Shown: positions 32,790 to 54,223 of the stretch, one piece after another
Numbering within the stretch: position 1 is the first letter of the stretch
Layout: every line of letters starts with the position of its first letter
Assembly (NCBI RefSeq): GCF_056712565.1
Contig: NZ_CM160072.1
Reading direction: 5' to 3' (one strand)
Length of the DNA: 64,000 bases
Made by a program: the position numbers and the translations under genes
Notes under the pieces: generated by a model
The model's database searches: none
The model's input: the letters and a program-made list of their open reading frames with translations, nothing else
Told to the model about the DNA's origin: nothing

Positions 32790-32874
32790 GTTGGAGTCAT
32801 TACCTCCTCCCGAACTCAAAGCTATCATACAGATAATTACTGGTTAACCCTATATAGGGCATTTTAAAGTGTTG

Positions 32875-33250
32875 TGATCTTACCCAGCAATAGTGGACAC
32901 GCGGCTAAGTGAGTAAACTCTCAGTCAGAGGTGACTCACAAGACAAAACAGTTTCAACCAGTAAAAAAACGTAAACACCATTCGCATGAATTTCGTAGTT
33001 AAGATCTGAAGCTTGCAGAATGCATCGGTGTTACTGCCGGAGTCCGTGAACTTAGTCTGCATTAATCACCACAGCTTTACATCTGTCGCAGTAAACAGCA
33101 AAATCAGCAAACTTACTTAATTATATCGAGTGCGATTACAATCGCTGGCGATGGTACAGTTGGTGTGGCGGTCTCAGTCCGGAACAATTTGAAAATCAGA
33201 ATCTCACTTAAAACGGCATCCATTTTACAAAAGATGGCCGTCTGTGTATT
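32875..33250 (+). mobile_element. Internally deleted IS3-like remnant (left end, start of orfA, then extreme 3' end of orfB)
   Basis: TGATCTTACCCAGCAATAGTGGACACGCGGCTAAGTGAGTAAACTCTCAGTCAGAGGTGACTCACA… then …[27 protein letters not shown]-stop; no intact ORF. Confidence 0.6.
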
Positions 33251-33549
33251 TATAATGAATACCTTCTACATGTTTAGAGTGCATAATCCACGACAAGGCG
33301 ATATCCTAAAAATTAGCTAGCAGGCAACTTTGATGGCATAGATAATGTTTTTAGTAAAAAAGAGTTGACTGAATATAATACAGCCTCTTCCTACATAAGA
33401 AGGAATGTGCTCACAAAAAAAACCATTAGTCTGCTTCCTGTTCTTACAATAATCAGTATTATGTATTTTATTTATATAGCAAAATATGCTTGTTACACCT
33501 GTCATAATTAGGCATGGTAAAATTATTGACTGAACCCTGGGGGAGAAAG

Positions 33550-33807
33550 ATGCACAGTGATTATTATAATATGGTTTTTGGTGAAAAATTGGCCAATATT
33601 TTATATGAAGCTAACTCTCAATTTTTTTACGAGAGAAATGTCATAGAAGAGGCAGTCAACGCTTTATTCTGTGAGCGTGAAATAATAAACAACAAGAACA
33701 TAATAAAGAAGCTGATGTTCTTTTTGTCAGATGTTAATCACACCAAGAAAGATGTTGTTCAGAGCGCACTTAATATTATCATTGACATTACATCAGGTGA
33801 TATTTGA
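33550..33807 (+). CDS. Small hypothetical protein in AT-rich DNA (85 aa from MHSDYYNMVF)
   Basis: ORF 33514..33807; no recognisable domain; low GC, flanked by IS remnants. Confidence 0.3.
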   Translation: MHSDYYNMVFGEKLANILYEANSQFFYERNVIEEAVNALFCEREIINNKNIIKKLMFFLSDVNHTKKDVVQSALNIIIDITSGDI

Positions 33808-34066
33808 GATTTTACATAAAAGATAATCTCTCAAGGAGTCTTATCTGAAAACGAAATATATAGTCCCTCTCGTTTTGTAATATCGATTGGCTTTGTTGAA
33901 TCGGTTACGTACCCCGGAGCCGGTCATATTTTCAGGTAATACACACGCTTTCAGACATTTCGGCTTTCGTCATTTTGGTATCATGGGCATAGCTTCTGCT
34001 ACCTGACCATCATAATCACGCAGCTTCAGTGAAGCAGTGACCACCTGTTTAACCCGGTGTATCGTT

Positions 34067-34290
34067 ATGATCTTATCCAGCAATAATGGACACGCGGCTA
34101 AGTGAACCGCCCCGGGTTTCCTGGAGAGTGTTTTATCTGTGAACTCAGGCTGCCAGATCATCGTTTCCGATGGAAGCATAATAAGCTTTTTCTGCTTCTG
34201 CCGGTGGGATATGGCCCTGCCTTTCCAGCAATCGTCGATTGTTATACCAGTCCACCCACGTGAGTGTGGTCAGCTCATCATACTGACACG
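34067..34290 (-). mobile_element. 3'-terminal remnant of an IS3-family element (terminal inverted repeat plus last about 40 codons of the transposase)
   Basis: TGATCTTATCCAGCAATAATGGACACGCGGCTAAGTGA and minus-strand translation …LTTLTWVDWYNNRRLLERQGHIPPAEAEKAYYASIGNDDLAA-stop. Confidence 0.5.
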
Positions 34291-34542
34291 TGCATTACCC
34301 CTACCGCGATAATGCAACCGTACAATATAGGGCGTTTCCTAAACGCAGCCCTCATCACTCCAATCCAACAAGACACAGCATTTTTGATCACGAAGAAAGA
34401 CAAATAATTTCCGTAAATGTTTCCGTTGTTACAAATAACAACAGTGTTTTACATTTCTTTGGCCTCAGGCCCGCGCATGTTGCCATTCGATGTCATTTTC
34501 CTGACTCGTTTCTTCTTTATGGTGTAGTGTGATCTTCACTTT

Positions 34543-51285: not shown

Positions 51286-52401
51286 ATGAATATTAAAGGT
51301 AAACACTATCGTACGGTCTGGGTTTCCGGGGATGGAAAAGCGGTAGAAATCATCGATCAGACTAAGTTGCCTTTTAAGTTCGAGGTGGTGGCGCTTACCT
51401 CTGCGGAAATGGCCGCTACGGCTATTCAGGATATGTGGGTTCGTGGCGCTCCGCTTATTGGTGTCGTTGCAGCCTATGGCATCGCGCTGGGAATGAATCA
51501 CGATGCCAGTGACATGGGTCTGCAGCGTTACTATGACCTTCTTATCAAAACCCGACCAACGGCAATTAATCTCAAATGGGCCCTCGACAGGATGATAGAC
51601 ACACTGAAGGATCTCTGTGTATCAGAGCGCAAGGATGTGGCCTGGGCGCTGGCGGCAGAAATTGCCGAGGAAGATGTCGCGTTGTGTGAACAAATTGGAT
51701 TACATGGTGCAGAAGTCATCCGCGAAATAGCCCAGAAAAAACCGGCCGGGAGTGTGGTCAATATCCTGACACATTGTAACGCAGGCTGGCTGGCGACTGT
51801 AGACTGGGGAACCGCGCTTTCTCCCATCTACAAAGCGCATGAAAACGGAATCCCTGTTCACGTCTGGGTGGATGAAACGCGGCCACGTAATCAGGGCGGA
51901 CTCACGGCATTTGAACTGGGCTCACACGGTATTCCTCACACCCTGATCGCCGACAACGCGGGTGGCCACCTGATGCAACACGGTGACGTTGATCTCTGCA
52001 TTGTTGGGACCGATCGAACCACGGCCAGAGGGGATGTCTGTAATAAAATTGGTACCTATCTTAAGGCGCTGGCGGCCCATGATAACCATGTTCCCTTCTA
52101 CGTCGCGTTACCTTCTCCCACTATTGACTGGACTATCGAGGACGGAAAAAGCATTCCGATTGAGCAACGTGACGGAAAAGAGCAGTCCCATGTCTATGGG
52201 ATAAACCCTCAGGGAGAATTGAGCTGGGTCAATACCGCCCCTGAAGGAACCCGTTGTGGGAACTACGCTTTCGACGTCACGCCTGCCCGATACATTACCG
52301 GCTTCATTACTGAGCGGGGAGTCTGTGCTGCCAGTAAGTCAGCGCTGGCGGATATGTTTGCTGACCTGAAGAGTAAAGCACTCCAGGGGGAACAGCATTA
52401 A
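51286..52401 (+). CDS. mtnA: 5-methylthioribose-1-phosphate isomerase (eIF-2B alpha/beta/delta-like family)
   Basis: 371 aa; …[15 protein letters not shown]… and …[10 protein letters not shown]… typical of this isomerase family. Confidence 0.8.
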
Positions 52402-52431
52402 AACAGCGGCCATTGCTATTAAGGATCAGGA

Positions 52432-53073
52432 ATGGAACGGATTAAGTTAGCAGAAAAAATCATTTCCACTTGTCGGGAAATGAATGCGTCAGGTCTTAAT
52501 CAAGGAACATCAGGTAATGTGAGTGCCAGGTATACCGGTGGCATGTTGATTACGCCGAGTGGGATCGCTTATTCAAAGATGACGCCGGACATGATTGTCT
52601 TTGTAGACGATAAGGGAAAACCTGAAGCGGGTAAAATACCATCAAGTGAATGGTTAATTCATCTGGCGTGTTATAAAGCCAGACCAGAATTGAATGCTGT
52701 CATACATACGCATGCGGTGAATTCCACGGCGGTGGCAATACATAATCATTCAATTCCGGCCATTCATTATATGGTGGCGGTATCGGGGACGGATCATATT
52801 CCCTGTATTCCCTATTATACCTTTGGCAGTCCTGAACTGGCCGACGGTGTATCTAAAGGAATCAGAGAAAGTAAGTCCTTGCTGATGCAGCACCACGGTA
52901 TGCTGGCCATGGACGTCACGCTGGAAAAGACGTTGTGGCTGGCGGGTGAAACCGAGACGCTGGCTGATTTATACATCAAATGTGGCGGATTACATCACGA
53001 TGTTCCCGTGCTGTCTGAAGCCGAAATGACCATCGTCCTTGAAAAATTCAAAACGTATGGTTTGAAAGCGTAA
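52432..53073 (+). CDS. Class II aldolase/adducin-family protein (probable 5-methylthioribulose-1-phosphate / 5-deoxyribulose-1-phosphate aldolase)
   Basis: 213 aa; zinc-ligand motifs VIHTHAVNS and HHGMLA; no dehydratase-pathway genes downstream. Confidence 0.75.
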   Translation: MERIKLAEKIISTCREMNASGLNQGTSGNVSARYTGGMLITPSGIAYSKMTPDMIVFVDDKGKPEAGKIPSSEWLIHLACYKARPELNAVIHTHAVNSTAVAIHNHSIPAIHYMVAVSGTDHIPCIPYYTFGSPELADGVSKGIRESKSLLMQHHGMLAMDVTLEKTLWLAGETETLADLYIKCGGLHHDVPVLSEAEMTIVLEKFKTYGLKA

Positions 53074-53176
53074 TTACAGCTTTATTTTAATTAATAACAT
53101 ATGACAGCCATTCGCAGAATGGCTGCTATTCCCTCTGTCCACAACGATTGATTATAACTACCACAAGGAGTTATTT

Positions 53177-54181
53177 ATGTTTATCGTGGAATCGTATGCT
53201 GTCGCCATAATAATGTGTTTTATTACCATGATTTGCTGGGGTTCATGGGCGAATACAACTAAACTTGTCAGCAATAAAAAATGGGAGTTCCCTCTATTCT
53301 ATTGGGATTATTCAATTGGATTATTGCTGTGTTCTTTGTTATTTGCCTTCACGCTGGGTTCTATGGGCGAAGCCGGTCGCAGTTTTATACCTGATATTCA
53401 GCAGGCGAGCAGCAGTAGTCTGATGTCGGCAATACTGGCAGGGATTATCTTCAATATTTCCAATATTCTTCTGGTCGCTTCTATTAATCTTGCCGGTATG
53501 GCGGTAGCTTTTCCTGTGGGTGTGGGGCTGGCACTGGCTCTGGGTGTGATCACCACCTATATCGGCAATCCGCAGGGCGATCCGCTCATTCTGTTCCTCG
53601 GTGTCGTCTGCGTTGTGATCGCCATTATTTTTACCGCGATAGCCTATGGTCGTGTCACGCAGGAGGCGGATAAATCTCGCCGTAATAAAGGTCTCATTAC
53701 TGCCATTCTGGCGGGTATCATCATGGGATGGTTTTTCCGCTTCCTGGCGGACTCCATGTCTGACAATTTCAGCCAGCCTGCCAGCGGTCTGATGACGCCT
53801 TACTCAGCACTTGTTCTGTTTGCCGTGGGGCTGTTTTTGTCGAACTTTGTCCTTAACAGGCTGGTCATGAAAAAACCTATTTCAGGAGAACCGGTCAACG
53901 GGAAAATGTATTTTTCCGGGAGTTTACGGGATCATGTTTGCGGCTGGCTGGGCGGTATGATTTGGTGTGTCGGTCTGGCATTCAGTCTGATTGCGTCTGG
54001 TCAGGCGGGGTATGCCATTTCCTACGGTCTGGGACAGGGGGCCACAATGATTGCCGTGATCTGGGGAGTCTTCATCTGGAGAGAATTTGCCAGTGCGCCA
54101 GCCGGAACCAATAAACTGCTGCTGACCATGTTTATTTCATACATTGTGGGTATTGTTCTTATTATCGCCGCTAATCAATAA
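53177..54181 (+). CDS. DMT-superfamily sugar permease (GRP/RhaT-like), 10 predicted TM segments
   Basis: 334 aa, highly hydrophobic, two repeated 5-TM halves; last gene of the mtn cluster. Confidence 0.65.
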   Translation: MFIVESYAVAIIMCFITMICWGSWANTTKLVSNKKWEFPLFYWDYSIGLLLCSLLFAFTLGSMGEAGRSFIPDIQQASSSSLMSAILAGIIFNISNILLVASINLAGMAVAFPVGVGLALALGVITTYIGNPQGDPLILFLGVVCVVIAIIFTAIAYGRVTQEADKSRRNKGLITAILAGIIMGWFFRFLADSMSDNFSQPASGLMTPYSALVLFAVGLFLSNFVLNRLVMKKPISGEPVNGKMYFSGSLRDHVCGWLGGMIWCVGLAFSLIASGQAGYAISYGLGQGATMIAVIWGVFIWREFASAPAGTNKLLLTMFISYIVGIVLIIAANQ

Positions 54182-54185
54182 AATC

Positions 54186-54223
54186 CTGCCCCATATCTAC
54201 ATGGGGCAGTTGTTCATTCTTTT
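54186..54223. terminator. Bidirectional terminator-like hairpin between the permease gene and convergent yjhU
   Basis: CTGCCCCAT-ATCTAC-ATGGGGCAG followed by TTGTTCATTCTTTT. Confidence 0.5.

Follow-up and report, generated by a model that had tools for sequence, protein, structure and literature searches.

Escherichia coli K-12 very probably derives from the same variant of the leuX island as the one described here, through a single 21,319-bp deletion adjacent to IS1F. The window, a 64,000-nucleotide stretch of contig NZ_CM160072.1 (RefSeq assembly GCF_056712565.1), carries a common form of the leuX genomic island of E. coli (KpLE2 type), in which the fec operon is followed by IS1F, three blocks that we call A, B, and C, and yjhU-yjhFGHI-sgc. 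The 21 kb is a known mosaic stretch. The structure of the K-12 junction shows that the difference is a loss in K-12 and not a gain in the window, and the orphan mtnR (yjhU) gene of K-12 is a scar of that deletion. This may be one modest new point; the other contents were already known, as annotated blocks and as a published DHAP-shunt operon.

The region lies within a tRNA island, as a first-pass annotation made from the letters alone had proposed. In the window, tRNA-Leu(CAA) is found at 6832 to 6916, the island begins immediately 3' of leuX, and beside the tRNA is a P4-type tyrosine integrase, annotated at about 7159 to 8367 (window positions) in the near-identical SF-468 record. With as many as 3 mismatches allowed, the window contained no further copy of the leuX 3' end, and the island ends distally near nanS and fimB, beyond position 64000. 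The same annotation had stated that in K-12 yjhU directly follows the IS1 near fecI, and this was correct: in MG1655, IS1F occupies 4518472 to 4519239 and is separated from yjhU by 98 bp. It had also called for an alignment to K-12. When the K-12 locus was compared with the window by blastn, K-12 locus positions 9533 to 20100 corresponded to window 22237 to 32804 at 99.82% identity, and positions 20101 to 29977 to window 54124 to 64000 at 99.96% identity (APEC O78 showed 99.57% identity over this right flank). Because collinearity holds on both sides, the sole gap, and hence the DNA absent from K-12, is window 32805 to 54123 (21,319 bp; no strand), an extent also given by the junction alignment. 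Of the interval originally proposed, 32805 to 54221, the start was exact and the end was not, since its last 98 bp (54124 to 54221) are retained in K-12 as 58 bp of the permease gene 3' end and a 40-bp intergenic spacer. A 23.5-kb query was recovered in a single piece at approximately 100% identity in many genomes, so the interval is not an assembly artefact; at least 80% of that query was found at one place in 437 of 5,426 complete E. coli genomes. The whole interval is already annotated, and hundreds of ExPEC genomes carry it in identical form.

The K-12 junction reads ...GGAGTCATTACC/GACCATG..., with the breakpoint precisely after ...CATTACC, the right terminus of IS1F. The window has the identical IS1F end at 32804 and carries GACCATG from 54124, and the junction sequences showed zero microhomology between the DNA beginning at 32805 and that ending at 54123. 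Directly after IS1F, K-12 keeps 58 bp (window 54124 to 54181, plus strand) that aligned at 100% identity with the window and encode 18 codons and a stop; their translation, TMFISYIVGIVLIIAANQ, is the C terminus of the intact permease. The K-12 "empty site" is not intact, being a fusion of the final 18 permease codons to the IS1F end. Because the right end of IS1F abuts the last 58 bp of a gene that is intact in the window, K-12 represents the derived state and bears the signature of a deletion.

This reverses the reading of the first-pass annotation, in which the interval was an insertion formed by stepwise accretion: a K-12-like ancestor would have had IS1 beside yjhU, and the window lineage would have gained about 21 kb. 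Such a gain would account for the absence of the segment from K-12, for its heterogeneous composition and plentiful IS debris, and for an IS1 without a target-site duplication, but it would have to rebuild a 334-codon permease reading frame from the 18-codon stub of K-12, and the stub contradicts it. The 21 kb is not enclosed by a target duplication or by element ends, and in the window neither direct repeats nor IS ends that match each other bracket 32805 to 54123. The distribution of the junctions also speaks against gain. The window-type junction, IS1F/TCCTCCCGA, was present in 2,064 of the 5,426 complete genomes, whereas the K-12-type junction is rare (357/5,426) and looks confined to the K-12 lineage, all 19 records sampled from the 357 being K-12 laboratory derivatives or K-12-sized genomes. 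Furthermore, lineages without fec-IS1F at this position also have the mtn operon beside yjhU. The yjhU region was found in 1,600 of the 5,426 genomes, with the permease gene next to yjhU in 1,222 of them, and nearly all of the remainder begin at exactly window position 54124. We consider stepwise gain very improbable. No pre-deletion or intermediate form was identified among close natural relatives of K-12.

The left anchor of the polymorphism is IS1F itself (32037 to 32804, plus strand), a 768-bp element delimited by 23-bp terminal inverted repeats (32037 to 32059 and 32782 to 32804) and encoding a defective transposase. The window and K-12 copies differ by 3 SNPs and have in common an InsB Trp-to-stop change, so neither encodes an active InsAB' transposase that could act in cis; the window copy has an additional stop just past the A6C frameshift site. 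The lack of a target-site duplication around the window IS1, which the first-pass annotation had pointed out, is borne out by the flanks GGGGATTTC and TCCTCCCGA, and no 8- to 9-bp duplication surrounds the K-12 copy, whose flanks are GGGGATTTC and GACCATGTT. Its suggestion of an IS1-associated event at this junction also holds, since the K-12 deletion endpoint is the right terminus of IS1F; the element is retained without a target-site duplication, and the distal endpoint shows no homology.

The fecI-ykiE/IS1F left junction is the same in the window and K-12, and this bears on a history in which the two arrangements were assembled independently, with fec-IS1F having entered the permease gene in the ancestry of K-12 and a different site in that of the window, and with neither arrangement derived from the other. 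With IS elements flanking the fec module and genes of block A found on plasmids as well, these modules are mobile in principle. However, a separate insertion would not recreate the whole of a left context that is collinear through IS1F at 99.8 to 99.95% identity, including the same left-hand junction of the fec module, and K-12 would in addition have had to lose everything from block A to mtnK-ald2. We give independent assembly almost no credence.

The deletion that we favor runs from exactly the right IS1F terminus into the permease gene; K-12 kept an intact IS1F without a target-site duplication, together with an 18-codon permease stub, and its yjhU/mtnR was orphaned. The most likely route would be an IS1 transposase-mediated adjacent deletion, that is, intramolecular transposition by way of the IS1F ends. 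A cis-acting IS1F event is unlikely because the transposase is a pseudogene in both copies and K-12 IS1F showed no detectable transposition (PMC12428005). Since the insB stop is common to K-12 and the window, we propose that transposase was supplied in trans by another IS1 copy, with IS1A or IS1E as the assumed source. The same deletion might instead have come about through RecA-dependent recombination of IS1F with a second IS1 in direct repeat, inserted in the permease gene at 54123/54124. Recombination of this kind would give the same product, a single IS1 that has no target-site duplication and whose end coincides exactly with the junction. It would not depend on a transposase being active when the DNA was lost, in keeping with the dead IS1F enzyme. 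Against it, the predicted intermediate junction between the permease gene and an IS1 left end was found in 0 of the 5,426 genomes, IS1F transposes at no detectable level, and K-12 IS1F is not chimeric: it is 3 SNPs from the window copy, whereas about 70 positions separate IS1F from the other IS1 types of K-12 (our comparison and PMC12428005). Such recombination would thus need either a partner of the IS1F type or a crossover at the extreme end. We regard the RecA route as unlikely, and the transposase-mediated deletion remains our preferred reading.

The contents of the interval were as the first-pass annotation had listed them: IS3-family remnants, an AT-rich orphan reading frame, a secreted phytase-like gene, an IS66 transposase remnant, an integrase-less CP4-44-type module, and the mtn cluster were all recovered. 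The interval is composite, as it had stated, because GC content differs by block, spanning 35% to 59%, and because the population distributions of blocks A, B, and C differ from one another; the survey of sub-blocks across strains that it had suggested also gave block A without the mtn operon in strain 18-4.

Block A (32805 to 37144) travels with fec-IS1F and holds IS remnants, a YmgB-like reading frame, the phytase-like gene, and the IS66 remnant. At its left is an internally deleted IS3-family remnant (32871 to 33230, plus strand), consisting of the left end and the 3' end of orfB, whose first 240 bp show a match of about 89% to IS3 and in which PGAP annotates a partial IS3 family transposase at 33113 to 33211. 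Its IS3-type left end, 32871 to 32912, recurs at 34064 to 34105 (repeat family D1). The latter lies among transposase fragments of the IS5/IS1182 and IS3 families (33932 to 34276, minus strand), annotated by PGAP as pseudogene pieces at 33932 to 34062 and 34145 to 34276. Between the two is the AT-rich reading frame (33514 to 33807, plus strand; segment GC content 35.5%), whose 97-residue translation PGAP assigns to the YmgB/AriR family and for which an NCBIfam search gave no match. The phytase-like (esterase-like) protein of 452 residues (34558 to 35916, plus strand) matches Pfam PF13449 (E = 7e-43) and has an N-terminal signal peptide, MKRKIIPVLIGCTLSFSALA/AQ, seen in the translation; many E. 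coli plasmids also carry its gene, at about 97% identity, in regions rich in IS1. The block closes with an IS66-family (ISEc8-like) tnpC remnant named by PGAP (36155 to 37144, minus strand), without the 5' part of tnpC and without tnpB and tnpA, and homology of block A to other genomes ends at 37144. In strain 18-4, block A follows fec-IS1F with the same IS66 element intact, and both the mtn operon and yjhU are absent.

Block B (37145 to 49277, plus strand) is a module of the CP4-44/CP4-57 type, truncated on either side, as identified from PGAP, Rfam, and comparison with CP4-44; no integrase is annotated within it. PGAP places in it an AlpA-like helix-turn-helix protein (37463 to 37669), a hypothetical protein (37764 to 38366), YfjI (38688 to 40172, minus strand), and a GTPase (41402 to 42274). 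An isrC/IS102 RNA (42391 to 42627; Rfam RF00124, 74.6 bits) precedes Ag43 (42646 to 45765), a frameshifted DUF905 gene (45836 to 46031), DUF932 (46149 to 46967), an antirestriction protein (47309 to 47782), RadC/JAB (47798 to 48274), DUF987 (48337 to 48558), the YeeU antitoxin (48721 to 49089), and CbtA (49179 to 49277), again from PGAP. No intact toxin-antitoxin pair is present in block B, cbtA being cut after its first 33 codons at 49277. Fuller relatives of the block have full-length cbtA, DUF5983, DUF957, and DUF4942, with Hha, Gp2, and zinc-ribbon genes upstream. The A/B junction, inside IS66 tnpC, and the B/C junction, inside cbtA, are truncation scars. With both ends of the CP4-like block being truncation junctions, the local history that can be seen here is one of erosion rather than accretion.

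Block C (49278 to 54221) carries the DHAP-shunt operon (50017 to 54181, plus strand), whose function and structure have been described (PMC10986504, PMC12632272). Its 5' region (49278 to 50016, plus strand), delimited by homology to APEC O78 that begins at window 49277, retains 739 bp of the published 799-bp mtnK 5' region, in which the promoters lie within 255 bp of mtnK (PMC12632272). The first three genes, all on the plus strand, exceed curated NCBIfam cut-offs: mtnK (50017 to 51276; TIGR01767, 522.5 bits, cut-off 275), mtnA (51286 to 52401; TIGR00512, 411 bits, cut-off 279), and the class II aldolase gene ald2 (52432 to 53073; NF005984, 365.6 bits, cut-off 264). Against the fucA equivalog TIGR01086, ald2 scores 317.6, under the cut-off of 400, consistent with its encoding an aldolase other than a true FucA. 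The 334-codon RhaT/GRP-type permease gene (53177 to 54181, plus strand) is placed by PGAP in the GRP family and matches only RhaT/GlcU models, with scores well under their cut-offs. Convergent with it is yjhU (54222 to 55208, minus strand), which is mtnR, encoding a DeoR-type repressor; its product has the same accession, WP_000373366.1, in SF-468, a K-12 derivative, APEC O78, and Nissle. YjhU (MtnR) represses the mtnK-mtnA-ald2-permease operon experimentally (PMC12632272), and the operon adjoins yjhU in the 1,222 genomes counted above, among them genomes with wholly different upstream cargo, so the mtn cluster is not cargo added beside yjhU. In APEC O78 and Nissle, block C and yjhU-sgc sit behind unrelated upstream cargo. 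Growth on 5'-deoxynucleosides and repression by MtnR were shown in ATCC 25922 (PMC10986504, PMC12632272), and from a sequence identity of about 99% the window operon would be expected to support the same growth under the same control.

Compared with known systems, this operon has the same genes, order, convergent yjhU, and conserved 5' region as that of the ExPEC strain ATCC 25922, at the same distal position in the leuX island and at about 99.3 to 99.6% DNA identity. It differs in that its 5' region stops after 739 bp, where it joins truncated cbtA, whereas in APEC O78, Nissle, and ATCC 25922 the region runs on to a small glycosyltransferase-like reading frame and restriction/McrBC genes. Block B resembles CP4-44 of K-12 (yeeP-isrC-flu-yeeR-yeeS-yeeT-cbeA-cbtA) in the families and order of its GTPase, isrC RNA, Ag43, RadC/JAB, DUF987, YeeU, and CbtA, with K-12 CP4-44 covering 41 to 42% of it at 94% DNA identity, and it resembles CP4-57 (alpA, yfjI ... 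yfjQ, yfjX, yfjY, yfjZ) in its AlpA-like and YfjI genes. Unlike either K-12 element, it lacks an integrase and lies away from its own attachment site, its cbtA is truncated, its DUF905 gene is frameshifted, and its left part is cut and fused to the IS66 fragment.

The island as a whole matches KpLE2 of K-12 (intB ... fec-IS1F-yjhU-yjhFGHI-sgc) in its tRNA and in collinearity, at 99.8 to 99.96% identity outside indels, with the shared order running from the intB remnant through nanXY, IS911, and fec to IS1F. K-12 differs in lacking window 32805 to 54123 next to IS1F, in lacking window 17885 to 22236, where it has IS30D instead, and in carrying IS2 at another site, 74 bp away and in reverse orientation. 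The event itself is closest to the IS1-promoted adjacent deletions, products of intramolecular transposition, that Reif and Saedler reportedly described in the gal region in 1975. Like those, the K-12 deletion begins precisely at an IS1 terminus with the IS1 kept, there is no target-site duplication, and the far endpoint is unrelated and without homology; unlike those, it is reconstructed by comparison rather than observed, and the transposase encoded by IS1F is defective, so that a different IS1 copy would have had to provide the enzyme.

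The window is E. coli chromosome that runs from yjgR'/idn through ahr to the tRNA-Leu(CAA) gene leuX (6832-6916) and into the leuX genomic island, known as KpLE2 in K-12. Gene names were taken over from two near-identical RefSeq records, one of them from strain SF-468, which shows 4 mismatches to the window over 45 kb. An integrase, IS2, a phosphoethanolamine-transferase pseudogene, IS4, nanX-nanY, IS911, a BCCT transporter gene, and IS600 follow 3' of leuX in that order. The fec operon (fecE to fecI, about 24.3-31.8 kb) is followed by ykiE and by the IS1 copy IS1F (32037-32804), and yjhU (54222-55208, minus strand) by yjhFGHI and the sgc genes.

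The first-pass annotation had placed yjhU directly after IS1 in K-12, and this is correct, with MG1655 carrying IS1F at 4518472-4519239 and yjhU 98 bp beyond. In blastn of a K-12 locus against the window, K-12 positions 9533-20100 matched window 22237-32804 at 99.82% identity and positions 20101-29977 matched 54124-64000 at 99.96%. These two collinear matches define the DNA that K-12 is without as window 32805-54123, or 21,319 bp. The alignment to K-12 that had been proposed as a check thus found the 21 kb missing there, not sitting at a K-12-like position. The earlier interval of 32805-54221 had its start exact and its end 98 bp too far, since the last 98 bp are also present in K-12. The window arrangement is not an assembly artefact, because a 23.5-kb query was found as a single piece at approximately 100% identity in many genomes, and at least 80% of it was found in one place in 437 of 5,426 complete E. 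coli genomes.

The difference had been read as an insertion by stepwise accretion of cargo, and in this respect the polarity has to be reversed. K-12 and the window share every base of the fecI-ykiE|IS1 junction, and 3 SNPs separate their IS1F copies. In K-12, the right terminus of IS1F, ...GGAGTCATTACC, directly abuts GACCATGTTTATTTC..., which begins at window 54124, within the permease gene (53177-54181). K-12 therefore keeps only the last 18 permease codons and the stop codon (TMFISYIVGIVLIIAANQ*), a 58-bp stub joined to the end of IS1F, with a breakpoint at the exact IS terminus and zero microhomology. An insertion cannot make a full-length gene from an 18-codon stub, and a deletion yields the stub naturally. 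K-12 is a deletion derivative at this locus. Its right flank is nearer to the window (99.96%) than is that of strain APEC O78 (99.57%), indicating that K-12 derives from the same island variant. The placement of the interval inside a tRNA island was right, as was the association of the junction with IS1. A search of the window for another copy of the leuX 3' end, which could delimit an inserted element, found none. Nor is the 21 kb bracketed by direct or inverted repeats; the only repeats detected were the IS1 terminal ones and a pair of IS3-type ends within the interval. The gene order of K-12 should not be taken as a neutral reference when insertions are called in the leuX island.

The population counts agree with deletion in K-12. 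The window-type junction (IS1F|TCCTCCCGA...) is present in 2,064 of 5,426 genomes and the K-12-type junction, in which IS1F abuts window 54124, in 357. Each of the 19 K-12-type records sampled either bears the name of a K-12 laboratory derivative or comes from a genome of K-12 size. A 1-kb probe spanning the 3' ends of the permease gene and yjhU (window 53600-54600) matched only 1,600 of the 5,426 complete genomes; 1,222 of these have both genes, and in nearly all of the others the match starts exactly at window 54124.

A breakpoint at the exact IS1 terminus, with the IS kept and with neither a target duplication nor homology at the opposite end, is the signature of classical IS1-promoted adjacent deletion by intramolecular transposition, as reportedly described by Reif and Saedler for IS1 deletions in gal. 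The deletion in K-12 would most likely have taken this route at IS1F. In K-12 and the window alike, a Trp codon in the insB gene of IS1F has become a stop, and transposition of IS1F in K-12 is not detectable (PMC12428005), so that the transposase was probably supplied in trans from another, active IS1 copy. An internal stop is likewise annotated in the IS1F copy of strain 18-4. At position 322, the window IS1F has an additional C-to-T change that gives a stop directly after the A6C frameshift site, where K-12 has Gln. The main rival, homologous recombination between IS1F and a second, directly repeated IS1 in the permease gene, would also remove the intervening DNA. However, the two-IS1 intermediate that it predicts (permease gene|IS1 left end) was found in none of the 5,426 genomes, and the K-12 IS1F is not chimeric, which weakens this explanation relative to adjacent deletion. 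The window IS1 also lacks a target-site duplication, as had been noted from the sequence and is confirmed by its flanks, GGGGATTTC and TCCTCCCGA. Its junction with the adjoining DNA at 32805 is common to 2,064 genomes and is thus old rather than strain specific.

The interval is indeed composite, and every item in the earlier inventory is present. It falls into three blocks with different histories, and the suggested GC profile differs among them (35 to 59% within block A, 38 to 57% within block B, and 39 to 49% within block C). Block A (32805-37144) consists of an internally deleted IS3-like element, an AT-rich ORF, IS5 and IS3 fragments, a secreted phytase-like gene, and an IS66 remnant, which is tnpC. 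The ORF, named as a YmgB/AriR family member, is flanked by IS3-type left ends at 32871 and 34064, and the segment that holds it has 35.5% GC. No NCBIfam family was obtained for the YmgB-like ORF, the phytase-like protein, a 200-amino-acid hypothetical protein, or YfjI, and Pfam resolved only the phytase-like protein among these four (PF13449, E = 7e-43), for which a signal peptide is visible in the translation. Many E. coli plasmids and one Escherichia albertii plasmid also carry the phytase-like gene (34558-35916), with about 97% identity. The plasmid copies lie in IS1-rich regions with several IS1 elements around them, as on pPSS-04_1 (7972-9330 of the locus), and from this sequence context the gene appears to be IS1-mobilized cargo. 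In the survey of sub-blocks across strains, at least 80% of block A was found in 1,428 genomes, with homology ending at 37144. In strain 18-4, block A follows fec-IS1F as in the window, but IS66 is intact and is followed by Zn-ribbon, Gp2, and Hha genes, with no mtn, yjhU, or sgc genes.

Block B (37145-49277) is the integrase-less module of the CP4-44/CP4-57 type. It encodes an AlpA-like helix-turn-helix protein, YfjI, a GTPase, the isrC/IS102 RNA, and Ag43, followed by a frameshifted DUF905, DUF932, an antirestriction protein, RadC/JAB, DUF987, YeeU, and a cbtA gene cut after 33 codons. The isrC/IS102 RNA upstream of Ag43 (74.6 bits) was the only hit in an Rfam scan of 30000-56000, with nothing unexpected. 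Both borders are truncation junctions, inside IS66 tnpC and inside cbtA. Fuller relatives continue upstream with Hha, Gp2, and Zn-ribbon genes and downstream with a full cbtA, DUF5983, DUF957, and DUF4942. Copies of at least 99% identity occur in about 418 records, and strain 00_3230 has a related copy in its leuX island with no mtn genes or yjhU.

Two further differences from K-12 lie nearer to leuX. The IS2 beside the integrase (8529-9859) is in the opposite orientation to K-12 IS2K (4182-5512 of the K-12 locus) and 74 bp upstream of it. An inversion of IS2 with a 79-bp segment was ruled out because each element has its own 5-bp duplication, GTAAC in the window and CCTTG in K-12; these are two independent insertions within 80 bp. 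K-12 is also missing window 17885-22236 (4.35 kb; an IS911/ISEc52-like copy, a DUF2254 fragment, a BCCT-family transporter gene, and IS600) and has IS30D (1.2 kb) at the same point inside IS911, which looks like a second IS-associated loss. Strain 18-4 likewise has IS30 at this site.

Block C (49278-54221) comprises the DHAP-shunt operon, mtnK-mtnA-ald2-permease (50017-54181, plus strand), and 739 bp of a conserved 799-bp 5' region. The mtn cluster is present as annotated, with mtnK and mtnA well above NCBIfam cutoffs, but it was wrongly taken for added cargo, as the operon belongs with yjhU. Block C and yjhU occur together in 1,076 genomes. In APEC O78 and in a Nissle record, block C adjoins yjhU-yjhFGHI-sgc behind quite different cargo (restriction-modification, McrBC), and window position 49277 is precisely where homology begins. 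The YjhU protein has the same accession in K-12, SF-468, APEC O78, and Nissle. In NZ_AP021935.1, a cut cbtA runs straight into a partial aldolase gene, with the permease gene and yjhU after it; this arrangement suggests that an island of the window type underwent a separate, partial loss of mtnK-mtnA.

Much of this is already known. The region is an ordinary annotated island mosaic that hundreds of genomes carry in identical form, and the most interesting part of its cargo has been published: the operon was characterized in the ExPEC strain ATCC 25922 (PMC10986504, PMC12632272), and YjhU was renamed MtnR, a repressor of that operon (PMC12632272). A near-palindrome, TGTCACATGACA, lies just upstream of mtnK (49960-49985), with a TGTGTCACA... 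motif about 35 bp further upstream; by position, these are candidates for the MtnR operator and CRP site placed in this region (PMC12632272). Nissle and K-12 are both given as being without the shunt (PMC10986504). A record labeled strain Nissle (NZ_CP148105.1) has mtnK-mtnA-aldolase-permease intact and adjoining yjhU (5418-10609 of the locus), and a check is due on either the published listing or the strain label. What is new is small, namely, that one IS1F-adjacent deletion left both the orphan mtnR and the 58-bp permease stub of K-12 as its scar; PMC12632272 makes no mention of IS1, and PMC13001218 holds nothing on locus structure.

The study of the MtnR repressor calls mtnR, unlike the shunt, widespread across E. 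coli and suggests that it is kept for other targets, e.g., efeUOB (PMC12632272). The yjhU 3' region is present in about 29% of complete genomes (1,600 of 5,426), so that yjhU/mtnR is itself accessory rather than widespread. Moreover, where yjhU is present in complete genomes, the permease gene is nearly always present with it, the K-12 lineage being the exception because of the deletion. For complete genomes, these counts qualify the claim of a wide distribution of mtnR independent of the shunt. K-12 yjhU/mtnR is likely a regulator orphaned by deletion and not one kept for other targets; the deletion at the ends of IS1F, whose own transposase is dead, would have used the enzyme of another IS1, removed the operon, and left an 18-codon permease stub. 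If so, the K-12 ancestor could grow on 5'-deoxynucleosides, the loss can be dated to a single event at the IS1F end, and a long-uncharacterized y-gene has a simple account as the repressor of an operon that K-12 lost. This bears on the reading of K-12 yjhU/mtnR data, including the proposed other targets, and on the view of the DHAP shunt as purely an ExPEC acquisition, in that at least one "commensal" reference would be without it through secondary loss.
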